From contig JAQGHF010000004.1 of assembly GCA_028288995.1 (NCBI GenBank), positions 57,204-121,203 of the forward strand: 64,000 bases of DNA, given 5' to 3'. The stretch's first letter is position 1. The number at the start of each line of letters is the position of its first letter. Under the pieces are notes generated by a model. It saw nothing but the letters and a program-made list of their open reading frames with translations. It ran no database searches and had not been told where the DNA came from. This DNA comes from Candidatus Saccharimonadota bacterium (GTDB lineage Bacteria > Patescibacteriota > Saccharimonadia > Saccharimonadales > Saccharimonadaceae). A program made the translations under genes and the position numbers. This document shows positions 7,191 to 60,591 of the stretch, in pieces.

Positions 7191-7228
7191 TATAAAATAA
7201 CCTCTCATTTCTGGGAGGTTATTTTATA
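7191..7228. terminator. Bidirectional intrinsic terminator between convergent genes
   Basis: TATAAAATAACCTC / GAGGTTATTTTATA inverted repeat. Confidence 0.75.
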
Positions 7229-9912: not shown

Positions 9913-11124
9913 TTATGGTTTTACGTATTGATTAAAGAAGTTAGCGGATAGCCACATTTCACTATACATGCCGTATCCGGTACCGTAGTCGTAATTATAC
10001 TGGGTGACAAGAATCTTTCCACCATCAACCGCCTCAACATACGCGGTGTGTCCTGGGTTTCCCCAAAGTGATGCGACTGAGCCAGCTTGTGGGGTACTTC
10101 CGAGGTTTGTCCAACCGTGCTTACTCACAAGGTTTTGCGCAGTCTGTCCACCGTTACCTAGGTCATTGTAGTAAACGCCTGTGGCCTTCGCAACGCGGTA
10201 TGCTACATAGCTCACACATTGACGGCAACCATAGCCGTGACCATCACCGCCGTTGCCGTCGGATCCACCGGTTGACATATATCCAGACATCGGGCAGTTC
10301 GAACTGTTCCATGGGTAGTCCGGCAAAGAACCTCCGTCAACAAGTGTGTAACCACCGGTCGCATTAGATCGTGCACGTAGGGCAGCTTGGGTTGCTTTTG
10401 CAGCGGCGATTTGCGCAGAACTACTTTGAATCATTGTTTGATAATTCGCTTCGTTACTTTGTGTCTGGTTCAAGAGTGCTTGCTGTTCATTCTGCTTCGC
10501 GACAAGTGTATCGCGAGCATCTTTTTGTTGTGCAAGAACTTTATCAAGATCAGATTTCTGTGTATCGAGTTGGACCTTCAAGGCTTTCACCTTTACGATC
10601 GTGTCGTTCAACTGAGTCTTTACGGAGGTTCGGTACTCTTGCTTATTCAAAAAGTCACCAATATTAGTGCTGCTGGCAAGCAGTTCGATCGGTGAGGTGC
10701 TATCGTCAATATAAAGATCGGCAATCGTCTTTCCGAGAGCGTCTTGGTTCTGGGTAATTTGCGTCTGAGTGTCGGCGATATTAATAACAAGCTTGTCGGA
10801 CTGTGCTTGGTTCAAGTTAATTTGTGCCTGCAACGCGTTCTTTTCATTATCAAGCTGTGCAACAGCATTTTGTAATGTGTTCGCCTGAGCGTTCAATTGG
10901 TCGGCTTGTGCCTGGTACTTCGCCATATCCTGCGTCAGTGCAGCAATCTGGTCATCATATTGGTCAGCAGCAGCGGGTTTCACAGTTGGAAGTGTTCCAA
11001 TAACTGTGAGTACAGAGATACCTACCAAGAGAATACCCTTCGATATTCGAGAAATTGAGACTGGTGTGGTGGATCGCAGCTTCATATCTTTAATAATCCT
11101 AGCATAACCACTATACTTAGTCAA
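9913..11124 (-). CDS. PcsB/CwlO-like coiled-coil + CHAP peptidoglycan hydrolase
   Basis: Signal peptide, long coiled coil, RQCVSYV (Cys), GHTAYVE (His); follows ftsEX. Confidence 0.88.
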   Translation of the reverse strand: MTKYSGYARIIKDMKLRSTTPVSISRISKGILLVGISVLTVIGTLPTVKPAAADQYDDQIAALTQDMAKYQAQADQLNAQANTLQNAVAQLDNEKNALQAQINLNQAQSDKLVINIADTQTQITQNQDALGKTIADLYIDDSTSPIELLASSTNIGDFLNKQEYRTSVKTQLNDTIVKVKALKVQLDTQKSDLDKVLAQQKDARDTLVAKQNEQQALLNQTQSNEANYQTMIQSSSAQIAAAKATQAALRARSNATGGYTLVDGGSLPDYPWNSSNCPMSGYMSTGGSDGNGGDGHGYGCRQCVSYVAYRVAKATGVYYNDLGNGGQTAQNLVSKHGWTNLGSTPQAGSVASLWGNPGHTAYVEAVDGGKILVTQYNYDYGTGYGMYSEMWLSANFFNQYVKP

Positions 11125-24659: not shown

Positions 24660-24691
24660 GAAAACCCCGCTAAGCGTTAGCAGGGTTTTCT
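24660..24691 (-). terminator. Probable terminator after lysS
   Basis: GAAAACCC-cGCTAA..TTAGC-aGGGTTTTC hairpin. Confidence 0.55.
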
Positions 24692-35595: not shown

Positions 35596-35630
35596 AAAAA
35601 AGAGCCTTATATCTGATAAGGCTCTTTTTT
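35596..35630. terminator. Intrinsic terminator after rpmE2
   Basis: AAAAAGAGCCTTAT / ATAAGGCTCTTTTT. Confidence 0.8.
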
Positions 35631-41336: not shown

Positions 41337-42230
41337 CTATTCGCCAAGTAGCTTTTGAAGGCGATCTAAGTCCTTTTCATCGGTGAACTTAATCACGATC
41401 GTGCCGGCACCTTTATTGTTGACTCGGATGTTCACGTCAGTCTTGAGGCGGCTGCGAAGCGTCACGATTTTTTGTTCGTGGCGGGATTCGTTTTCTTTGA
41501 CGGTCTGTACTTTTGGCTGGCTTTTGCCGTTCTTAGCGTTCACGACGTATTGTTCAACTTTACGCGCACTCCACTCTTCAGCAATAATACGGGGCACTAC
41601 TTCATTCACGAATGCTTCGTCCCAGGATATCAGCGGGCGCGCTTGCCCTTCAGTCAATTTTCCTTCAGCGATAAGTTCACGAACGTTCTTTGGTAATTTT
41701 AAGAGTCGCATCGTGTTCTGCACGGCACTTTGTGACTTGTTCACGCGCTTTCCGATGGCTTCATTGGTCAGGTTAAATTGGTCACGAAGTTTTTGGTATG
41801 AGGTTGCGATTTCGATCGTGTTAAGATCACGACGCTGTAGGTTTTCAATTAGTGATACTTCGAGCTTGTTCTGGCCAGTCATCGATCGTATAAGTGCAGG
41901 GATGGTGGTCAGACCAGCAATCTGAGACGCACGAAAACGACGCTCACCGGCAACAATTTGATAGCCGCCATTCAATTTTGTAACAATAATTGGCTGCAAG
42001 ACGCCATGTTCTCTCACCGATTCAGCAAGTTCATTCAAGGCATCTTGATCAAAGGTACGACGTGGTTGATCCGGATCGGCGGTGATGTCAGAAAGCTTCA
42101 AGTTCTTTAACTCACTCACCTGTTCATCAATCTGTTTTGTCGTGTCGAAAGAATCATCCAATAGATCGATAGGGATCAGTGATTCAAAGCCTCGTCCGAG
42201 ACCTCGTGATGGACCTTTTTTCTGTGCCAT
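41337..42230 (-). CDS. parB: Chromosome partitioning protein ParB
   Basis: GLGRGFESLI, DQPRR, IVAGERRFRA, IENLQRRDLN. Confidence 0.96.
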   Translation of the reverse strand: MAQKKGPSRGLGRGFESLIPIDLLDDSFDTTKQIDEQVSELKNLKLSDITADPDQPRRTFDQDALNELAESVREHGVLQPIIVTKLNGGYQIVAGERRFRASQIAGLTTIPALIRSMTGQNKLEVSLIENLQRRDLNTIEIATSYQKLRDQFNLTNEAIGKRVNKSQSAVQNTMRLLKLPKNVRELIAEGKLTEGQARPLISWDEAFVNEVVPRIIAEEWSARKVEQYVVNAKNGKSQPKVQTVKENESRHEQKIVTLRSRLKTDVNIRVNNKGAGTIVIKFTDEKDLDRLQKLLGE

Positions 42231-43015
42231 TACTTTCGTTCTCCAACAGCAACAGAAGTCCTCTGAATAACCTCTTTAGCGAGTGCTTTATAGGCACGTG
42301 AACCTTTTGAGAATTTATCGTAGACACCAATCGGCACACCGTGACTTGGTGCTTCAGCGAGGCGAATATTGCGTGGAATCGTAATATCAAAGACTTTTCC
42401 CGGGAAGTGACGCTTAATCTCTTCATGAACTTGGTTACTGAGTGTTGTTCGACTATCAAGCATTGTCGGTAGCACGCCGAGTAGTTCAAGTCCTGGATTC
42501 ATTCCCTTACGGACCAATTTCATCGTCTCGAGAAGCTGTCCTAAGCCCTCTAACGCGTAAAACTCTGCCTGAACTGGCAGTAACACGTATTTTGCGGCAA
42601 TCAGCCCATTAACGGTTAAGAGGCTGAGGCTCGGTGGACTGTCGATAATAATGTAGTCATAGGCACCATTACTTGCTTCAACGGCATTTCGAAGCCGTGA
42701 AAATTTCTTGTCAGCCTGCGCTAATTCCACCTCTGTGTTTGCAAGGATCGAAGTGGTTGGTGCGAGCCATAAGTTCTTGTGCTCGGTCGGAACAACCACC
42801 GAAGCAAGGTCGTTGCCGCCAATAACAACATCTGTCATTGTTGTGGTCAGTTCAGCCTTATTTACCCCAAGCCCACTGGTTGCGTTCCCTTGTGGATCAA
42901 AGTCGATCAAAAGGGTCTTTTTATCAGCCTTGGCGAGGAAATACGCCAAGTTAATAGCGGTGGTTGTCTTACCAACGCCCCCCTTCTGATTGGTCACTGC
43001 GATAACGATCGACAC
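42230..43015 (-). CDS. parA: Chromosome partitioning ATPase ParA/Soj
   Basis: NQKGGVGKTTT, DFDPQGNA, IDSPPSL, IPRNIRLAEAPSHG. Confidence 0.96.
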   Translation of the reverse strand: MSIVIAVTNQKGGVGKTTTAINLAYFLAKADKKTLLIDFDPQGNATSGLGVNKAELTTTMTDVVIGGNDLASVVVPTEHKNLWLAPTTSILANTEVELAQADKKFSRLRNAVEASNGAYDYIIIDSPPSLSLLTVNGLIAAKYVLLPVQAEFYALEGLGQLLETMKLVRKGMNPGLELLGVLPTMLDSRTTLSNQVHEEIKRHFPGKVFDITIPRNIRLAEAPSHGVPIGVYDKFSKGSRAYKALAKEVIQRTSVAVGERK

Positions 43016-43145: not shown

Positions 43146-43176
43146 AAAAAGAAACCCCCGGTGGGAGTTTCTTTTT
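43146..43176 (-). terminator. Terminator after rplU
   Basis: AAAAAGAAAC...GTTTCTTTTT hairpin. Confidence 0.65.
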
Positions 43177-49770: not shown

Positions 49771-52700
49771 TTAGTTCTTTTGAAGGCTTAGTTGAAGCGT
49801 TTTGCCTTCAATTGTCAGCGTTTCAGCGTGCGCATATTCGCCGGTTGAGATTGCCCCCGCTAATGTTTCAGCCGCAATTGCTGATCCAAATTCTGTAATC
49901 GCTTGCGCCAGTTCTTCATCTTCAGTCGTGAGGCTGAGGTCAATATGATCGTCAACGTTCAAGCCCGCATTTTTACGAGCTGCCTGTGCGTAGCGAATGA
50001 TTTCACGAGCGTAGCCTTCGCGTTTTAATTCTGGCGTTATTTCAAGGTCGAGCGCTAACTCGTTACCCTGAATAACTTTTTTGACATTCAATTCTTCAAT
50101 CAGGACATCTTCGAAGTTTACGAACTCACCAAGTGTCGGCACCGTAATGCTCGCAAGCGGTTGGCGAATCTTCATCTTTGATGACGCACGAATGCTAAGT
50201 GCCTGATTGACGTACTCGCGAACGGTTTCCATGTCTTTGACGACTAACTCGTTGATGTGACCAACCTCTGGCCAATTTGTGAGGTGAACACTTTCTTCAC
50301 CGGTGAGATTACGGTACAGTTCTTCAGACAAGAATGGCACAAATGGAGCCAAAGCCTGGCTAAGACGAACTAGTACGTAGTGGAGCGTTTGGTAGGCATT
50401 ATTCTTGTCGGTATCGTCCTCCGATTTCCAGAAACGGCGACGTGAACGGCGAACAAACCAGTTACTCGCATCGTCGATGAATGGCAAGATCGGCTTCACG
50501 GCATTTGGAATATCGTAGCCGTCCATGTTCTTTTCAATCTCTTCGATAAGTTGGTGCAACCGACTGACGACCCATTGGTCGAGTGGGTTTGTGAGGTTTT
50601 CTGACGGGTCTTCGAGCTTGCCGTCTTGACTTGGAATGAACTCCCAGCCATCAACTTCAGCATACAGCGTAAAGAAATCGTACATGTTCCATACCATGCT
50701 GAGTTTTCGCGCGACGTCCCCCACTTCCCTGTCTTTCAGGGCAAAATCTTCACCGGAAAGCAGTGGGCTTGAAAGCAGTGTAAAGCGAAGGCTATCAGCA
50801 CTATACTGATCCATCAATAGGTTCGGATCGGTAAAGTTGCCCTTGCTCTTACTCATCTTGAGACCGTCGTTACCTGCGACATTTCCAGTAACAATCACGT
50901 TCTTAAATGCGTTGTGACCAAATAAACCGACGTTCACAGCGTGCACATAATAGAACCAAGCACGAACTTGACCAACGTACTCAACGATAAAGTCACCCGG
51001 GAAATTAGCTTCAAATTTTTCAACGTTTTCAAAAGGATAATGGAACTGCGCGAATGGCATTGAGCCAGACTCAAACCACCCATCGAGGACTTTGTCGATA
51101 CGTGTGTAGTGCACACCATCGAGGTCAAATTCGACGTCATCAACCCATGGGCGGTGATAATCTTCAAGTTCGACGCCCGAGAGTTCTTTTAGTTCAGCGT
51201 AGCTTCCGACCACTTTGACGAGTTCGTTGCCGTCTTTGTCAGTTCCCTTCCAGACTGGCATTGCCGTTGCCCAGAATCGGTCACGTGATAAGTTCCAGTC
51301 GGGTGCAGTTTCAATTGTTTTTTCAAAACGACCGTGTTTGATATGCGGTGGGAACCAATTAATGTGTTCAGCGTTCTCGTCGAGCATCTGCTGGCGCTGG
51401 TTATCAATATTAAAGAACCAACTTGGGTGCGCGCGGTACATCAAACGATGCCCAGTACGTGGATTGTGTGGATATTCGTGACGAATATAATCAATTTTCC
51501 ACACAACGCCGCGTTCTAATAAGGTCTTGGCGATAGTTTTGTTAATCGCCCACACTTCCTCACCAATCCAGTCACCTTCGGTGTACACACCGTATTCATC
51601 AAGCACATGAACGATTGGAATGTTGTTTTCTTTTGCGAAGATAAAGTCCTCTTCACCGTAAGCGGGTGCAAGGTGCACGATACCGGTACCAGATTCGGTC
51701 GTCACGTAATCGGCTGACCAGACTTTGTGGGCGTTTTCACCGCGATCTGCGAAGAGTGGCTCGTATTCGAGACCAACAAGCTCATCGCCCTTGAGGCTAC
51801 GCACAATTTCATATTCTAGTGGCTGATGTTTTTCGTCGGTAAATACTTTTGCAGCAAGATCTTTGGCGACAATCAATTGTTCATCACCAATCTTCACTTC
51901 GACATATTCCACTTCACTATTTACTGCGAGTGCTACGTTAGCGGGAAGCGTCCATGGCGTTGTTGTCCACGCAAGCAAAGAGCTACCAGAAAGGCTATCG
52001 TCAACGATGACACCCTCGGCTAATTGCTTTACTCGACTCTCAATTTGCGCACGTGCATCACGATTTTTCTCCCAGCTTTCACCGCGAGGATCGAGAACAT
52101 TCCACCATACGACGTTGTCAGCATTCAGCCAATCAGGAGTTTGCTCTTTTTCGGCAATATTTACGACAAGATCGTACTGCTGCAGCATGTCTTCAGTAAG
52201 TTTTTGACGTTTGTGACCTGTTACATCAACCCCTACCTCTTCCATAGTTGCCGTCGTTTTAATACTGCCTGGCTTCAATTCACCCAGTATGTCTTCGAGC
52301 GCAACGAGTGTCGTTGCCTCTTCCCAGTGCGCGTCAGGATTGACGCCCGCAGACTCGGCACTGGCTGTTTCTGTGAAATGATTGTAGAAACCCTGAGCAA
52401 AGTGCGAACGACCAGCATTTGAGTAACAGACGAAAAGCACTTTCGCCTCTTTCGACAAATTTGCGGGTTTAGAGTGGTTCTTTAACTTGAATTTCACATA
52501 CACGCTCGGATCCGTGACATTCACATACGCCCCAGCATCCATCGTCACTTCAGCTTTTGAAAGTGGTGTTGCCCACTGCGTGTCATACATAAGGACGCGT
52601 TCACCTTCGTAGATTTTGCCTTTTTCGTAGAGTTCTTTGAATGCCCACCAGACTGACTCCATATAGTCTTTGTCCATCGTGCGGTACGCGCCTTTAAAGT

Positions 52701-53130
52701 CGACCCAGCGACCAATGCGGTCGATTGTATCTTCCCAAAGCGCAGCGTTTGAGACCATACTTTCACGGGCAGTCGTAATGTAATCAGCAAGGCTAATCTT
52801 CTCACCCACGTCGTGACGACTGGTAATACCGAGTTTTTTCTCGATAAAGTTTTCAGCTGGTAGTCCGTGTGTATCCCAACCCCAGACACGCTCGACATGC
52901 TTCCCCTTCATCGTTTGGTAACGCGGCACGGCATCTTTCACAATCGAACTAAGGAGTGTTCCATGGTGCGGCACGCCGGTAATAAACGGAGGACCATCGT
53001 AAAAGACATACGAATTATCTATCGGTCGTTGATCGACTGATTTTTCGAAAGTTTTGTTATCTTTCCAGTAACGAATAATGTCTTTTTCGTATTCGAGTGC
53101 GCGGCGGCGTGTGCCTGATTTGAATTTCAC
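49771..53130 (-). CDS. ileS: Isoleucine--tRNA ligase type 2 with an inserted LMW-PTP/ArsC-like domain
   Basis: FYDGPPF, GWDTHGLP, WTTTPWTLPAN, WNLSRDRFW, GQVRAWFY, KMSKS; GTG start with SD AAGGAG. Confidence 0.96.
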   Translation of the reverse strand: MKFKSGTRRRALEYEKDIIRYWKDNKTFEKSVDQRPIDNSYVFYDGPPFITGVPHHGTLLSSIVKDAVPRYQTMKGKHVERVWGWDTHGLPAENFIEKKLGITSRHDVGEKISLADYITTARESMVSNAALWEDTIDRIGRWVDFKGAYRTMDKDYMESVWWAFKELYEKGKIYEGERVLMYDTQWATPLSKAEVTMDAGAYVNVTDPSVYVKFKLKNHSKPANLSKEAKVLFVCYSNAGRSHFAQGFYNHFTETASAESAGVNPDAHWEEATTLVALEDILGELKPGSIKTTATMEEVGVDVTGHKRQKLTEDMLQQYDLVVNIAEKEQTPDWLNADNVVWWNVLDPRGESWEKNRDARAQIESRVKQLAEGVIVDDSLSGSSLLAWTTTPWTLPANVALAVNSEVEYVEVKIGDEQLIVAKDLAAKVFTDEKHQPLEYEIVRSLKGDELVGLEYEPLFADRGENAHKVWSADYVTTESGTGIVHLAPAYGEEDFIFAKENNIPIVHVLDEYGVYTEGDWIGEEVWAINKTIAKTLLERGVVWKIDYIRHEYPHNPRTGHRLMYRAHPSWFFNIDNQRQQMLDENAEHINWFPPHIKHGRFEKTIETAPDWNLSRDRFWATAMPVWKGTDKDGNELVKVVGSYAELKELSGVELEDYHRPWVDDVEFDLDGVHYTRIDKVLDGWFESGSMPFAQFHYPFENVEKFEANFPGDFIVEYVGQVRAWFYYVHAVNVGLFGHNAFKNVIVTGNVAGNDGLKMSKSKGNFTDPNLLMDQYSADSLRFTLLSSPLLSGEDFALKDREVGDVARKLSMVWNMYDFFTLYAEVDGWEFIPSQDGKLEDPSENLTNPLDQWVVSRLHQLIEEIEKNMDGYDIPNAVKPILPFIDDASNWFVRRSRRRFWKSEDDTDKNNAYQTLHYVLVRLSQALAPFVPFLSEELYRNLTGEESVHLTNWPEVGHINELVVKDMETVREYVNQALSIRASSKMKIRQPLASITVPTLGEFVNFEDVLIEELNVKKVIQGNELALDLEITPELKREGYAREIIRYAQAARKNAGLNVDDHIDLSLTTEDEELAQAITEFGSAIAAETLAGAISTGEYAHAETLTIEGKTLQLSLQKN

Positions 53131-53142
53131 GTTTACTCCTTT

Positions 53143-53343
53143 AAAAAATAAAAATCACTTCTTCTGAATGTCAGAGTCCCTGAATGAGGACGGTTCCATC
53201 TGACTTCCAAAAGAAGTGATTCTTCTTCTAGCGCTTAGTTGATCGCTGTGTCGCCGCGTTCACGTTCGGTTCTACTGTCCCCAAAATAGTATCAAGGATT
53301 TCTTCCGAAGACTCGTGGCTGATGACCACTCAATCGTCTTGCC
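53143..53343 (-). ncRNA. ileS T-box riboswitch, ultrashort-Stem-I (actinobacterial class II-like)
   Basis: Stem I 53308-53340 with AUC in the terminal loop; CUUCGGAAGAA and CAGUAGAACCGAACG blocks; antiterminator GUCAGA-UGGAACC-GUCC / GGAC-UCUGAC; TAAAAT at 53347-53352. Confidence 0.88.
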
Positions 53344-56029: not shown

Positions 56030-57265
56030 CTACGCTTTAAATCGAGCAAATAATTTAGTCAGGATGCCTTGGACATCCTTAACCGCATGACCAGATTTCT
56101 TACTCTGACCACGGTTATTTACTACGATACGTTCTGCATCAAAAAGCATCAGTCCAATTGCAGTGGCAAATGAAGGTTTTTCAATATCATCAGCAACACC
56201 ACCGTAACCAGTTGGCTTACCAACACGTGCAGCGAGTCCGAGGAAATTCTTCGCGTACTCAGCAATATGCTTGAGTTGTGCGCCGCCACCAGTCAGAACA
56301 ACACCACTTGGAAGCTTGCCTGCGCGACCAGCTTTCTTCAGTTGATGCTGAATTGCTTCAAAAATTTCTTCTAGGCGAGCTTCGACGATTTCGTCGATAT
56401 CACTCGTTTTAAATGTCAGCACTTCCCCATCGTGTTTCAAGCTGATGCCGGCTTCTTCTTTACGAACCACTGCAGAGGCGTGCTCAAGTTTAATCTTCTC
56501 GGCAACTTCAGGATCAGTCTTCAGACCGATCGCAAGGTCGTTGGTGATGTTTGTGCCACCAATAGGAATAACGCCCGTGTACTGGAGATCACCTTCTTCG
56601 TAGACAGCGATACTGGTCGTTGCACCGCCCATATCTATGACAGCAACACCGTTTTCAAGTTGTTGTTCACCAAGCACCGCACGTGCCGCCGCAATAGCCG
56701 AGGCAACGACTGAATTTGGATGTACTTTGGCAGTTTCAGCTGCTTTCTGCACGTTCACGAGATATGGAGTCAGCCCTGAGATAACATGTGCATCAATTTC
56801 AAGGCGCGTGCCCGTCATGCCGAGTGGATCTTTGATGTTATCTTGACCATCAAGTTTATAAGCATGTGGAATGACGTCAAGGATTTCGCGGTTCGCAGGG
56901 ATTTTGCCAAGTGTGGCAACTTCTTCAATGCGAGCTAAGTCGTCGCGAGTAATTTCGTGATCAGCAGCCCCAACGGCAACCATGCCATCAGCGTGTGTAC
57001 TCAGAATGTGTGCACCGTTGACGCTAATCGTCGCAGCGTCGACTTGGTAGCCGCTCATTCGTTCAGCTTCACCAAGCGCATCATCAATCGCTTGCGCTGG
57101 ACCGTTTAAGTTAACGACAACGCCTTTGCGCATGCCGGTATTTGGAACTTGACCGACGCCAACAATAGTTGGAACCCCTGTTGAACCATCGATGTGTGCC
57201 ACTACGGTTCTGACAGTTGTTGTTCCAACGTCAATTCCGACGGCGTAGGTAGAACCTTCTTGCAT
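56030..57265 (-). CDS. ftsA: Cell division protein FtsA
   Basis: [24 protein letters not shown]-terminal amphipathic helix; start moved to MQEGS at 57265. Confidence 0.95.
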
Positions 57266-57342
57266 GAAGCTTAGTATAGCGCTTACGTCTGTTGTTGCAA
57301 AGTCATAAAACTTGGAAATAGCCAATAAATGTTGAGTAGCGC

Positions 57343-57462
57343 CAACAATCCGCCACTTACTTCCCTTCGGAGGTCGCTCTATGGGGAACTAAAGTTCGCC
57401 CATGGCGCTTGGCTCGCCCTTTCGGGGACATCCTCCTTAGTTAAGTAAGTGGCGGATTGTTG
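57343..57462. repeat. Palindromic structured element, copy 1
   Basis: Perfect 20-bp arms (57343-57362 / 57443-57462) enclosing a 72-nt core (57366-57437). Confidence 0.9.
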
Positions 57463-57470
57463 AGATGCGC

Positions 57471-57986
57471 TCAAATTAATTTTTTTGCCGCAATGAGTAA
57501 CGTTAGATCTCTTTTAACGATTGATGTTCCTGAGTAATCATCAGTTTTACTGTTCTCAAGCAGTACAATCGCTTCATCAATATTTTTCGCCCATCGTATT
57601 TCAAAGCCGTTCGCTAATTCCTCATCAGTAAAATTAGGTTCAGCTTTTTCACCAATTTGTTTTGCTAAATAACAATACGATGTTTGTTTTAGTTGCTTTT
57701 CACCTAAATACTGAACAATTTCACCAACTTCACCAATAACTTGAGCTTTACATCCGATTTCCTCAAGCAGCTCACGAGCTAGCGCTTGCTTCACGTCCTC
57801 ACCATCTTCGATGCCACCGCCAGGTAACTTGTAATAATTGTGATTCCCTACTTTTAGTAACGCAACTTGATTCAAGTCGTCCAATACGATTGCTCGGGCA
57901 GCGGTACGTGTTCGAAAACCATTTGGGTCAACATCAATGACTCCTTCGTAAAGGTCAGAGTCACGAATTGTAGGTAATATGTTCAT
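57471..57986 (-). CDS. NUDIX hydrolase
   Basis: Nudix box GGGIEDGEDVKQALARELLEEIG. Confidence 0.93.
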   Translation of the reverse strand: MNILPTIRDSDLYEGVIDVDPNGFRTRTAARAIVLDDLNQVALLKVGNHNYYKLPGGGIEDGEDVKQALARELLEEIGCKAQVIGEVGEIVQYLGEKQLKQTSYCYLAKQIGEKAEPNFTDEELANGFEIRWAKNIDEAIVLLENSKTDDYSGTSIVKRDLTLLIAAKKLI

Positions 57987-58328
57987 TTAGCGACCAACAA
58001 ACACACTGACAGCAGTTACTACGATAAATAGAGCAAGGACAACGGCTACTGCGGCGAGAAAAACCTTACTCGGTTTTTTAAAATATTTTCGTTCTGTGAT
58101 TGGGATTATCTTAACGGGAGCAACATTCGTTGCTTCAGGCATTAAGTGATCTTTGATTTCCTCAAGATCCTGCTGAAGCTTAAACGTTGCTGTTTGCACC
58201 TGCCAGGCACGAAGAATAAAGACGATCAGCAACACAAAAAGGATCAGTCCGATGAGTACAGCTAACGCTGCCATACCTTCGAGCGTTAGAAAGAAGCGAT
58301 TTAAATTATCAGGATAAGATTGATTCAT
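57987..58328 (-). CDS. Hypothetical two-TM membrane protein
   Basis: Two hydrophobic helices; ATG 58328 has TATACT 6 nt upstream. Confidence 0.65.
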   Translation of the reverse strand: MNQSYPDNLNRFFLTLEGMAALAVLIGLILFVLLIVFILRAWQVQTATFKLQQDLEEIKDHLMPEATNVAPVKIIPITERKYFKKPSKVFLAAVAVVLALFIVVTAVSVFVGR

Positions 58329-58364
58329 ACTTGAAGTATAGCATCGAAATTCGCACAACTTTGC

Positions 58365-58487
58365 TCCATCCTTTTCTCACCGTTTTCTAGAGGAGGATGT
58401 CCCCTCACGGGGCGAGCCAAGCGCCATGGGCGAACTTCAGTTCCCCATAGAGCGGCCTCCGAAAGAGAATGGTGAGAAAAGGATGGA
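58365..58487. repeat. Palindromic structured element, copy 2 (core inverted relative to copy 1)
   Basis: Perfect 17-bp arms (58365-58381 / 58471-58487) enclosing a 73-nt core (58391-58463). Confidence 0.9.
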
Positions 58488-58488
58488 A

Positions 58489-59244
58489 TTACAGCTGCGT
58501 TAAAATCTCAGCGCCATCCTCAGTAATAAGCACCGTGTGCTCAAAATGAGCCGCAAGGCTGCCATCACGAGTCGAGATTGTCCAACCGTCGTCTTCTTGT
58601 TTGATGCGTTCACCGCCAAGCGTTGCCATTGGTTCAATTGCGATCGTATCGCCCGGCGTTAAGAATGTGCCAGTTCCCTTTTTGCCGTAGTTTGGCACTT
58701 CAGGTGCTTGGTGCATTTCGTGACCAACACCGTGACCGACGAGTTCGCGGATAACACCGAGTTTCGCTTCTTTCAGAACCTTCTCAACAGCCGCGCCAAT
58801 ATCACCAGTTCGCACTGGACCTTTAATGGCATCAATCCCTGCGTAAAGACTTCGTTCGGTTGCATTGATTAAGTGCTTTTGGGCACCGTTTGGCTCGCCG
58901 CCAACGACCGTCGTAAAGGCACTATCAGTCTTCATACCTTTGTACGTAATGACTAAATCAAAGCTAACGATATCACCTTTTTGTAGGATGTAATCGGTTG
59001 GAATACCATGCACAATCTGCTCGTTTGTTGAGATACAAATGGCTGCAGGAAACTCTACTTCGGGAGTTTTATACGTTGCGATTGCACCAAGTCGCATAAT
59101 TTCTTTATCCACCCAAGCATCGAGTTCTTTTTCGCTGACACCAGGGACAATTTGCTTTTTAAGACCATCGAAAACAGTCGCGAGGATCTTACCGCCATCG
59201 CGCATTGCTTGAATTTCTTCAGGGGTTTTTTGTGGACCTATCAT
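58489..59244 (-). CDS. map: Methionine aminopeptidase type I
   Basis: CISTNEQIVHGIP, DSAFT, GHGVG..MHQAP, AIEPM, AAHFEHT. Confidence 0.96.
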   Translation of the reverse strand: MIGPQKTPEEIQAMRDGGKILATVFDGLKKQIVPGVSEKELDAWVDKEIMRLGAIATYKTPEVEFPAAICISTNEQIVHGIPTDYILQKGDIVSFDLVITYKGMKTDSAFTTVVGGEPNGAQKHLINATERSLYAGIDAIKGPVRTGDIGAAVEKVLKEAKLGVIRELVGHGVGHEMHQAPEVPNYGKKGTGTFLTPGDTIAIEPMATLGGERIKQEDDGWTISTRDGSLAAHFEHTVLITEDGAEILTQL

Positions 59245-60539: not shown

Positions 60540-60591
60540 AAGAAAAAGAGTCCGCACTTGAGAGAGCGGACTCAATCTCTTGTGCGGACTC
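60540..60591 (-). terminator. Intrinsic terminator with a duplicated 5' arm
   Basis: Minus strand GAGTCCGCAC..GAGTCCGC..GTGCGGACTC-TTTTTCTTT. Confidence 0.7.

Follow-up and report, generated by a model that had tools for sequence, protein, structure and literature searches.

The window, that is, the whole stretch of DNA of 64 kb that was analysed, carries a small islet between the conserved genes map (methionine aminopeptidase) and ftsA, and this islet, which consists of a NUDIX hydrolase gene and an ORF of 123 aa with a probable ATG at 58328, is bordered by two inverted copies, A and B, of a branched hairpin element (table 1). The gene assignments in and around it (ftsZ, ftsA, NUDIX, a 123-aa ORF that has no Pfam family, map and adk) hold. 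The promoter of ftsA (TTGCAA-N16-TATACT) is located at 57273-57300, and the ATG at 57265 is apparently leaderless.

Table 1. Features of the map-ftsA region in window coordinates. F is the strand on which the element folds.
Feature	Position	Strand	Remark
ftsA with promoter	56030..57300	-	conserved right border
Element B, whole hairpin	57343..57462	- (= F, co-directional with NUDIX and ftsA)	starts 8 nt past the NUDIX stop codon
Element B, closing helix arm CAACAATCCGCCACTTACTT	57343..57362		20 perfect bp with 57443-57462
Element B, core	57366..57439	+ (strand of the preliminary description)	covariance-model match, 89.7 bits
Element B, closing helix, other arm	57443..57462		partner of 57343-57362
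Variable islet between the twins	57471..58358	-	123-aa ORF and NUDIX hydrolase
NUDIX hydrolase	57471-57986	-	within the islet
Element A, whole hairpin	58365..58487	+ (= F, antisense to map)	starts 1 nt past the map stop codon (58489-58491)
Element A, closing helix, 5' arm on F	58365..58388	+	pairs with 58464-58487
91-nt unit in element A	58381..58471		an identical copy lies at a third locus in this genome
Element A, core	58389..58463	- (strand of the preliminary description)	covariance-model match, 87.1 bits
Element A, closing helix, 3' arm on F	58464..58487	+	partner of 58365-58388
map (methionine aminopeptidase)	58489..59244	-	conserved left border gene

The two cores had been described as near-identical, and re-reading bears this out: across 54 nt they share 96% identity and differ in two substitutions and one swapped hairpin loop. 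A 39-nt core pattern (up to 3 mismatches) matches the window exactly twice, against 0 matches expected from 100 shuffles. The core of element A forms a three-way junction of P1, a long P2 with an internal loop and a variable tip, and a short P3. The perfect outer stems of 20 bp and 17 bp that had been reported as private to each copy are present, and the second (58365-58381/58471-58487) extends to a closing helix of 24 bp that includes two G-U pairs on the + strand; each of the outer stems occurs in the window solely as its own two arms. Both copies adjoin a stop codon, as had been noted, and both whole hairpins fold far better than shuffled sequences (z -7.5 to -10.6). Contigs of the source run match the window sequence with zero differences, one unitig ending at the 91-nt repeat, and the same arrangement is present in independent assemblies from other samples, which rules out an assembly artefact.

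Elements A and B belong to an apparently low-copy family in Candidatus Microsaccharimonas (soil Saccharibacteria) that occupies at least nine loci across relatives; about 25 further copies were recovered from contigs of this genus. The genome of the window carries at least three copies, two within the 64 kb and one elsewhere. With filters off, the covariance model detected no further copy in the window, and none except the truncated A on the two extension contigs (L044 and L045). An exact 20-mer marks one locus in an 845-kb contig and one in a 298-kb contig; the scan of reference-genome contigs, which returned L001 alone, underestimates the spread, its 22-mer including four variable bases of the P2 tip. 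The copies are dispersed and intergenic, and they lie in both orientations relative to genes and replication. Each has a stop codon at a distance of 1-45 nt on one side and the next promoter downstream of it, and F runs antisense to the flanking genes at about half of the loci. At least seven other loci carry solitary copies, without a partner and without variable cargo. No copy was found in viral contigs, phages or plasmids with core patterns and blastn (the sole 20-mer match in a viral contig, L043, is not an element), and an origin from phages or plasmids was rejected on these results.

The fold is backed by covariation. In the covariance-model alignment 94.6% of the cells are paired, compared with 37-54% in slid-alignment controls, 11 pairs show double-sided changes, and none of 500 shuffles was as good. 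RNAalifold, run independently on 16 full-length hairpins of the F strand, yielded 44 pairs, 29 of them with compensatory changes, and four to five pair types in each closing-helix column; these figures are to be read as coming from a single genus in which template switching, known to yield compensatory changes without selection on RNA (PMC8794818), could mimic compensation. Double changes reach the otherwise invariant proximal part of P2, where L035A has replaced ATGGG/CCCAT with ACAGG/CCTGT. L014B and both copies of L039 have swapped a G-C for an A-T pair. The P2 tip varies in length from 11 to 20 nt between invariant blocks, as expected of a hairpin that protrudes but not of a site bound as double-stranded DNA. 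With a fold that homologues of different genomes share and that covariation supports statistically, the element qualifies in this respect as a generic conserved structured RNA motif. The covariation also supports the earlier view that structure is retained while arm sequence is replaced.

The proposal of a branched three-way junction therefore stands as to its fold, which the covariation supports, but not as to its strand, since the pairing is under selection on one strand, F, which is the reverse complement of the strand originally read. This follows from the isolated mismatches of the closing helix, which on F comprise 21 G-U, no A-C and 7 other oppositions (about 18 versus 3 independent events). 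F is also more stable than its complement in 16 of the 22 elements, and its internal loops are purine-rich, with tandem G-A beside P1. Many tips are C-GNA-G triloops, which are classic stable mini-hairpins of DNA. G-T is the least destabilising mismatch in single-stranded DNA too, so the strand test is compatible with a DNA hairpin.

Orthologous copies keep the core over times that saturate neutral sites: 45 core positions are 89-100% identical in orthologous A and B copies, compared with 36-59% identity at the fourfold-degenerate sites of map. In the head of about 75 nt the junction, the proximal helices and the GCC/AGA internal loop are near-invariant, and both hairpin tips vary freely; coding potential was discarded, because short ORFs cross the core on both strands but tip and loop lengths vary out of frame. 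The closing helix, or handle, is 8-31 bp long and keeps its pairing but not its sequence. The arm of window element B has homologous but diverged counterparts, with mirrored changes, in the orthologous B copies of L012, L014, L031 and L039, and orthologous B handles in general retain homologous blocks, every other change being mirrored in the opposite arm. The private stems, although perfect and real as first described, are no peculiarity of the two window copies; when genomes with saturated neutral sites are compared, any helix of this family constrained for pairing alone looks like this. Selection for pairing only could have produced their perfection, possibly aided by template switching within the hairpin during replication. 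Perfect hairpins attributed to template switching (PMC8794818, PMC10710096, PMC13100816) resemble the handles in that arms become or stay complementary, indels are mirrored and repeats extend outwards; unlike the elements described here, template switching denotes a mode of mutation, not a class of elements, and it explains neither the conserved head nor the strand bias of the wobble pairs.

Within one genome the cores are homogenised by concerted evolution, and each locus retains its own handle. In L039 the A and B cores are identical, loops included, and the handles differ. The third locus of the window genome has the identical 91-nt unit in an unrelated palindromic handle, with the foreign flanks GGTAATTCGACTCT / AGAGTCGAATTTACC; read depth at this unit is 23.9, against about 14. 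Other origins of the handles were tried and set aside. Captured foreign or guide sequence is contradicted by the absence of the L013 stem from viral contigs and by the 11-mer matches of 17 handles across all loci, which stay at chance level; copying from local flanks, by the handle of L040, which has no counterpart in the empty site L042; and insertion into a pre-existing terminator hairpin, by the empty sites L037 and L042, in which no hairpin is found, and by handles that do not carry the A/T tracts of the genome's terminators.

Between map and ftsA lies a hotspot of gene turnover, whose borders are marked by the inverted pair with its F strands facing outwards. The preliminary description had asked whether the flanked genes vary, and they do: the twin arrangement is present in six distinct map-ftsA loci, where cargo genes differ, lie in both orientations or are missing altogether, one genome having the pair back to back around a 15-nt spacer. 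NUDIX is common to the window and L039, with different partners and in a different position; L008 has cargo with a single copy, and in L031 an additional ORF lies outside the pair. In other genomes the site has one copy or is empty. The element is absent there from three genomes and degenerate in one, which makes it dispensable at map-ftsA. The earlier remark that no transposase lies nearby agrees with the Pfam assignments, which contain no transposase, integrase or HUH gene among the 63 ORFs of the window; HUH, RAYT and transposase genes are likewise missing from about 400 kb of fetched flanks, and no integrase or recombinase gene was found near an element in either set.

The element could be assigned to none of the known families considered. 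Rfam 15 gave no match in the window at the gathering score, and at E up to 10 only chance matches between 57200 and 58600 (miRNA and snoRNA models, 12-22 bits with cut-offs of 47-297); none of these was to a self-cleaving ribozyme (hammerhead, twister, twister-sister, pistol, hatchet or HDV-like). ARAGORN found no tRNA or tmRNA gene in the window. In REPs and REPINs the whole repeat, arms included, is conserved within a genome, whereas A, B and the third copy have unrelated arms and only the core in common. A DDE-type MITE is contradicted by terminal helices (P1, inner stem and handle) that covary around an invariant interior, and by flanks that are inverted, not direct. Integron attC sites are not matched either: AAC/GTT ends are confined to some of the B-type handles, each copy is either solitary or inverted relative to its partner, and no integrase was found. 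As for intrinsic terminators, the terminator scan was silent, and on neither strand is an arm followed by a T run, whereas the canonical terminators of this genome carry A/T tracts. TIGR arrays (TIGR-Tas, PMC12045711), which have been reported from CPR bacteria, share palindromic stems that flank a functional loop, but their units are arrayed beside a gene for Tas (Nop domain), with box C/D and variable spacers in the loops; the present element has no tandem array, Tas gene, box C/D or spacers, its loop is a conserved junction and its neighbours are map, NUDIX and ftsA. The preliminary description had proposed an undescribed structured ncRNA or ssDNA element, a proposal supported by the missing Rfam match, the many copies and the strong covariation, and it had named three grounds for abandoning it: a known family, an assembly artefact, or a lack of further copies and covariation. 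Since further copies and covariation were found, and neither a known family nor an artefact, none of the three applies.

Our preferred interpretation, to which we assign a probability of roughly 0.45, is that the elements form a small family of structured RNA modules, which are strand-specific, evolve in concert and are probably bound by protein or processed. The long persistence in situ, the conserved core and the concerted evolution speak for a functional RNA family more than for a MITE or REPIN. The folded molecule would be RNA transcribed from F, and its double-stranded handle may allow processing of the RNase III type to release it from longer transcripts or to stabilise it; the head would be bound by a conserved protein, and the family would behave as a multi-copy RNA gene or cis-element family and not as a transposon. 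The conserved twin cores may in addition act as homology arms for islet exchange. The RNase III processing stems that flank rRNAs and other stable RNAs would be the best analogy for this design of handle and head, because there too a long stem of flanking sequence encloses a conserved RNA and keeps its pairing while its sequence drifts; they differ in that the RNA enclosed here measures about 75 nt and matches no known RNA, that processing of the handle is putative, and that some handles are shorter than two helical turns. A more far-reaching version appears unlikely as a whole. It supposes a new functional RNA class, in which the head recruits a dedicated protein or is catalytic, RNase III cuts the handle of 20-30 bp, thereby punctuating transcripts at operon borders and releasing a stable RNA of about 85 nt and possibly locus-specific small duplex RNAs, and the outward-facing pair defines and insulates a slot for accessory genes swapped by recombination between the invariant cores.

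As to transcription, consensus scans found neither a promoter nor a U-tract terminator flanking either strand of the element. By eye, several B copies are preceded at 5-10 nt by -10-like hexamers, and in several A copies TAGCAT stands opposite the cargo promoter, inconsistently in both cases. An own promoter or terminator was consequently dismissed, the scan being empty and the hexamers too inconsistent. Where F is antisense to the flanking genes, as at about half of the loci, F-strand RNA would need unrecognised promoters or antisense transcription. The three metatranscriptomes of the source study have zero coverage across the whole 3.8-kb region, and none of the RNA runs screened holds the related loci L017 or L026.

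The main rival to a structured RNA is a non-autonomous mobile element, similar to REPINs or PATEs, whose folded form would be single-stranded DNA and which would be mobilised in trans by an HUH enzyme (RAYT or of the IS200/IS605 TnpA type) or another structure-specific enzyme that recognises the head; we consider this possible but doubtful. The dispersed, intergenic, low-copy distribution in both orientations to genes and replication agrees with it, although the copies found per genome are few, and so do the 91-nt unit shared by two loci with unrelated flanks and the presence, absence or decay of a copy at an orthologous site, whereas other orthologous copies have stayed conserved in place at a single locus in genomes with saturated neutral sites. 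Folding on one strand without a visible promoter and the C-GNA-G tips likewise suit single-stranded DNA, but the private handles, which lie outside any shared unit, are still under strand-specific pairing selection in situ. Long vertical persistence is no obstacle, as REPINs persist in this way for very long (bioRxiv 10.1101/2021.07.10.451892; PMC3116915). With REPs and REPINs and their RAYTs the element indeed shares the intergenic position in either orientation, the strand-specific hairpin, the long vertical inheritance and a possible action on mRNA 3' ends; REPINs, however, conserve the whole sequence with its arms in tens to hundreds of copies and have a 5' tetranucleotide of the GTAG type and a single-copy RAYT gene, whereas here the apical three-way junction alone is conserved, the arms are private, the copies found are few, neither a conserved flanking tetranucleotide nor a target-site duplication is found, and the window and all fetched flanks lack RAYT or any other HUH or transposase gene. 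The conserved parts (junction and proximal helices) are internal and the terminal helices free, which is the reverse of a MITE or REP. The same holds for the comparison with the Correia (Neisseria) and ERIC (enterobacterial) MITEs, which are also palindromic intergenic units of about 100-150 nt, but which conserve terminal inverted repeats and target-site duplications around a free interior. The transcripts of Correia and ERIC units fold into long hairpins, which RNase III or RNase E can cut and which can change how stable the neighbouring mRNAs are.

Other explanations were weighed as well. One sees in the elements ordinary hairpins that end transcription units and act in either orientation as terminators, insulators or mRNA stabilisers, the core being a passenger spread by gene conversion. 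This is distinctly unlikely: their constant place between a stop codon and the next promoter, the accessory islet that the twins border between essential operons, and the long hairpins without a core in comparable places (for instance L008 3363-3426 and the terminators of the window) would suit this explanation, yet no U/T tract follows the stem on either strand, L021 and L023 already have a canonical terminator 30 nt ahead of the element, a passenger core would not hold its identity of 89-100% while neutral sites saturate, and pairing selection tracks the element's own orientation and not the direction of neighbouring genes. It is very unlikely that the twins are recombination sites, similar to those of attC or invertases, at which a recombinase, or homologous recombination between inverted cores, inserts, exchanges or inverts a cassette. 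The solitary copies at seven or more loci, the single copy beside the L008 cargo and the ORF outside the L031 pair do not fit this, and neither does the lack of a nearby integrase or recombinase gene, even though the six map-ftsA loci with different cargo (one of them cargo-free), the cargo in both orientations and the NUDIX gene in different company in the window and L039 would accord with it. The resemblance to attC extends to structure conserved over stem sequence, strand-specific folding and a position at the 3' end of cassette genes beside variable cargo; on the other hand, attC sites form arrays in direct orientation beside intI/attI, with R and L boxes, extrahelical bases and a variable apical structure, whereas here the apical structure is conserved, the copies form no direct-repeat array, and direct reading of the sequence finds the RYYYAAC/GTTRRRY boxes inconsistently. 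The least probable of these explanations is that the head is a new self-cleaving ribozyme or other catalytic RNA that cuts its own transcripts. Many bacterial hammerhead and twister loci are multi-copy, intergenic and present in both orientations, as are the elements, and the size of about 75 nt, the three-way junction, the invariant junction and internal-loop nucleotides among varying helices and loops, and the lack of an Rfam match for the element would agree with a new class; no signature of a known class is seen in Rfam at E up to 10, however, recognition by protein better fits proximal helices that are invariant throughout and not in a few core nucleotides, and the variation of both terminal loops argues against a conserved tertiary contact mediated by them.

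What makes the family worth following is that a module of about 120 nt is maintained in several copies per genome of roughly 0.85 Mb, and that a core which is near-invariant across species with saturated silent sites must do something. To our knowledge, the non-coding RNAs of Saccharibacteria and other CPR bacteria, whose genomes are tiny and gene-dense, are almost unstudied; if the module acts as RNA, it would offer a first way into the RNA processing or RNA-protein biology of the phylum, and if it is a mobile element at the DNA level, it would be an unusual one, with its conserved part internal and its ends private. In either case the strict pairing selection on a handle free in sequence, next to an invariant junction, is a clean natural case of compensatory evolution. 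The module also marks a recurrent hotspot of gene exchange beside cell-division genes, which bears on how reduced genomes gain accessory functions. In the window, element B lies upstream of the ftsA promoter.

Elements A and B, the hairpin copies beside map and beside NUDIX/ftsA, had been described as near-identical inverted cores within private outer stems, and both points stand. The cores are 96% identical over 54 nt, set apart by two substitutions and a single exchanged hairpin loop, and each inverted-repeat sequence is absent elsewhere in the window. A 39-nt core pattern with at most 3 mismatches occurs exactly twice in 64 kb and never in shuffles, and both hairpins are far more stable than shuffled controls, in RNA and DNA folding alike (z -6.5 to -10.6). 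Pfam bears out the genes, every one of them on the - strand (ftsZ, ftsA, a NUDIX hydrolase, a 123-aa ORF of no family, map and adk), and the copies do abut stop codons, A beginning 1 nt past that of map and B 8 nt past that of NUDIX. Contigs from the source metagenome run match the map-ftsA region with zero differences, which rules out an assembly artefact. Nor is a transposase nearby: a Pfam scan of 63 window ORFs found no transposase, integrase or HUH domain, and no such annotation was found in the fetched flanks of other loci.

Element copies, states of the map-ftsA interval and other window hairpins (L numbers are other genomic or metagenomic loci; F is the strand selected to fold)
Feature	Position or locus	Strand	Detail
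Core of B (~73 nt)	57366-57439	+	
Core of A (~73 nt)	58389-58463	-	
B perfect inverted repeat	57343-57362/57443-57462		20 bp
A perfect inverted repeat	58365-58381/58471-58487		17 bp
F strand of A		+	antisense to map
F strand of B	window	-	
Element after map	A		
Element before ftsA	B		
Element between rpmH and rnpA	L018, L022, L026		beside dnaA
Element between nusA and infB	L001		
Element after dnaB	L030		
Element adjoining rpsT	L016		
Element among small ORFs near topA	L013, L020, L021, L023		
Element before response regulator	L004		
Element	L005		
Element	third locus of window's own genome		
Interval empty	L037, L041, L042		50-85 nt
Interval, one degenerate A	L033/L034		Ca. M. sossegonensis, 56.6 bits
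Interval, B only	L040		
Interval, A + B back to back	L035/L036		15-nt spacer, no gene
Interval, A-cargo-B	window		123-aa ORF + NUDIX
Interval, A-cargo-B	L039		NUDIX + unrelated 143-aa ORF
Interval, A-cargo-B	L012		DUF5677 protein, opposite strand
Interval, A-cargo-B	L014		two small ORFs
Interval, A-cargo-B	L031		Excalibur-domain protein; extra ORF between map and A
Interval, A + cargo, without B	L008/L017		
Hairpins, perfect or near-perfect	7191-7228, 24660-24690, 35596-35630, 43146-43176, 60540-60581		14-19 bp, 3-5-nt loops

Further copies exist beyond the window, in a reference genome, metagenome contigs and contigs retrieved through map homologues. Scanning species-representative genomes with a 22-mer gave one copy, in Ca. 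Saccharibacteria UBA6039 (L001), a lower bound on the spread, as the pattern contained four bases of a variable helix. Among 29 metagenome loci found with a 20-mer, 17 are true elements and the remainder GC-rich coding sequence. A covariance model built on 15 distinct copies revealed second, inverted copies overlooked by the exact-word search, and more copies in the map-homologue contigs, whose names place the window organism in Candidatus Microsaccharimonas. One copy lies between rpmH and rnpA beside dnaA (L026, 2149-4450) and another after dnaB; parA/parB (41337-43015) is ~15 kb from the twins, and in L041 (12858-33610 of an 858,846-bp contig), which represents a near-complete genome, ~23 kb separate the start of the contig from the map-ftsA site. 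Copies may be clustered near the replication origin.

The consensus fold has four parts. P1, the covarying closing helix of 4-6 bp (GGAGG/CCTCC, AGAGG/CCTCT, AAGGGG/CCCCTT, AAGTGG/CCACTT), stands on a long, locus-specific helix, the handle. P2, the long arm, is near-invariant proximally, with a conserved irregular internal loop and a bulge, while its loop and its distal 4-7 bp are free to differ in both length and sequence; P3, the short arm, has 5-6 bp and a variable 3-5-nt loop. Covariation is strong. In the model-fitted alignment the paired share of cells is 94.6%, and 11 pairs have changed on both sides; no shuffle out of 500 did as well, and slid registers reached 37-54%. Independently, MAFFT/RNAalifold on 16 full-length hairpins predicted 44 pairs, 29 of them with compensatory changes, handle columns showing four or five pair types apiece. 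Even proximal P2 compensates where it varies (ATGGG/CCCAT to ACAGG/CCTGT in L035A; G-C replaced by A-T in L014B and L039A/B). The spacing between invariant blocks ranges from 11 to 20 nt, following P2 tip length, which rules out a conserved double-stranded protein-binding site; the conserved state is therefore a folded single strand.

The strand under selection to fold is the complement of the one written out in the preliminary description; this strand, F, reads AGGAGGATGTCCCC...CCTCCGAA. Both arms of every closing helix were aligned, G-T and A-C were scored alike, and isolated mismatches with at least two Watson-Crick pairs on either side were counted. On F these are 21 G-U, 0 A-C and 7 others, or roughly 18 against 3 independent events, allowing for shared ancestry and non-isolated cases. 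F is also the more stable strand in 16 of 22 elements (mean -2.35 kcal/mol); on it the loop adjoining P1 is purine-rich with tandem G-A, the P2 irregularity is a conserved GCC/AGA internal loop, and many hairpin tips are C-GNA-G triloops. The bias tracks the orientation of the element itself and not the direction of neighbouring genes, and therefore one specific strand is selected to fold at every locus. The F strands of A and B point outward from the islet, the variable genes that they enclose.

In comparisons of the window with seven relatives, identity is 82-94% for map proteins and 36-59%, near saturation, for the fourfold-degenerate sites, whereas 45 core positions are 89-100% identical across orthologous A and B copies. 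The core is therefore under strong purifying selection or continual homogenisation. Orthologous B handles retain short homologous blocks (CAACAA.CC, AATCCG, TTACTT), and all their other changes, one indel included, are mirrored in the opposite arm; the L039 A handle (19 perfect bp) has no resemblance to that of the window. Private perfect stems had been taken for an unusual feature. At roughly 0.8 substitutions per neutral site, even between closer genomes, a helix constrained to nothing but pairing is expected to be replaced in full, and no special mechanism is required. Handle arms may be kept perfect in part by intra-hairpin template switching, a documented means of homogenising and extending the arms of inverted repeats (PMC8794818, PMC13100816).

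The two L039 cores, A and B, are identical down to both variable loops and a derived A-T pair, while P1 helices and handles differ. The source-run assembly graph branches exactly at 58381 and 58471, and this 91-nt piece (depth 23.9 vs ~14 in its neighbours) also links a pair of further contigs (27.6 and 38 kb) that are equal in depth and whose ends form another private palindrome, GGTAATTCGACTCT / AGAGTCGAATTTACC. Gene conversion between old paralogous loci explains both observations without a new insertion, though a recent one, bringing a new palindrome with it, may conceivably have taken place. The history of the element is one of concerted evolution rather than obvious transposition. In Ca. 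Microsaccharimonas sossegonensis the degenerate A copy (L033 10777-10852, also L034 3327-3402) has a broken P1, an altered junction and a handle of just 9 bp, which suggests decay in that lineage.

The flanked genes do vary, cargo differing by genome across the many states of the interval, and no hairpin was found in the empty map-ftsA sites; the twins therefore delimit a hotspot of gene turnover, the pair being tied to no particular cargo. Compared with the empty L042, the extra DNA in L040 is the entire palindrome, with arms unlike the empty-site sequence. The islet NUDIX (57471-57986) matches the candidate defence model PADLOC PDC-S07 (E 3e-10) and the DUF5677 cargo of L012 (4627-5301) weakly matches an ABC-3C middle component; the slot may collect defence-like accessory genes.

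What, then, is the element? Rfam 15 at gathering score gave no match in the whole window, and at E up to 10 only chance matches at the element locus; ARAGORN found nothing in the window, and no similar DNA was found in viral contigs, GenBank phages or PLSDB plasmids. Neither Rfam nor full-text literature searches on Saccharibacteria/CPR RNA motifs, hairpins and Microsaccharimonas yielded a description of it. We regard it as a new family, like known kinds (structured ncRNA motif, REPIN-like repeat) but with defined differences from every one of them. Another system of hairpin units known from CPR bacteria, the TIGR stem arrays, requires a Tas gene, box C/D motifs and arrays, all three absent here. 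The closest likeness of the handle-plus-head design is to stable RNAs enclosed by RNase III processing stems, and we therefore favour, at a probability of about 45%, an F-strand RNA module whose double-stranded handle would serve for its processing or stabilisation and whose head would be bound by a protein. Five traits are as expected if functional structured RNAs, or cis-elements, form a small family: conservation that is internal while helices and loops are free, persistence in situ, selection for pairing that is strand-specific and extends to the private handles, concerted evolution of the cores and low copy number. Serious weaknesses of an F-strand RNA are the lack of a recognisable promoter or U-tract terminator at the elements and the fact that F is antisense to neighbouring genes at half of the loci.

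The main rival, a REPIN-like element that would fold as single-stranded DNA and depend for its movement on an enzyme encoded at some other locus, is somewhat unlikely; G-T tolerance and GNA triloops fit DNA equally, but the five traits above are contrary to expectation for a MITE or REP. Plain terminator or insulator hairpins are improbable; the five other window hairpins, taken as a contrast set for the handles, mostly have flanking A/T tracts and resemble the usual bidirectional terminators. A role as recombination sites, in cassette exchange or inversion, is slightly less probable again, solitary copies elsewhere lacking variable neighbours. A new self-cleaving ribozyme is the least probable reading.

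Several neighbouring features were also observed. Element B lies upstream of the ftsA promoter, and ftsA looks leaderless (57263-57300; TTGCAA-N16-TATACT, ATG 7 nt later), as does the first islet gene (58326-58343; extended -10, TGCTATACT, ATG 6 nt later), the same layout being seen for L018 rnpA and for a 474-aa gene of L030. In L035/L040/L042 (~10990-11110) near-identity extends over the ftsA promoter and its first ~20 codons, synonymous positions too, the sole difference being A/G in the -35 region, and map fourfold sites are just ~45% identical; L014 3315-3418 and L008 4054-4157 share 104 nt at 100% identity. Either the leaderless ftsA 5' end is under unusually strong constraint or recombination recurs at that border. 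Between two convergent cargo genes, L008 (3363-3426) has a core-less nested hairpin (outer stem 15 bp, inner stem ACAAAAGT/ACTTTTGT); gene ends in these genomes therefore also bear long hairpins that lack the core. A canonical intrinsic terminator (AGACCGCAAGGTCT then T7) lies ~30 nt before the element on the + strand of L021 (~2560-2650), likewise in the L023 flank, and on the other side an extended -10-like box, TGTGATAAT, faces the element. An imperfect 29-nt inverted repeat (53147-53227; 83% complementary, 23-nt spacer) between the ileS end and a VKOR gene is unrelated to the family. The isoleucyl-tRNA synthetase (49771-53130, 1119 aa) has a low-molecular-weight phosphotyrosine phosphatase/ArsC-like domain inserted into it (PF01451, residues 231-371); its L040 homologue is long too (1131 aa), others having 953-977 aa.
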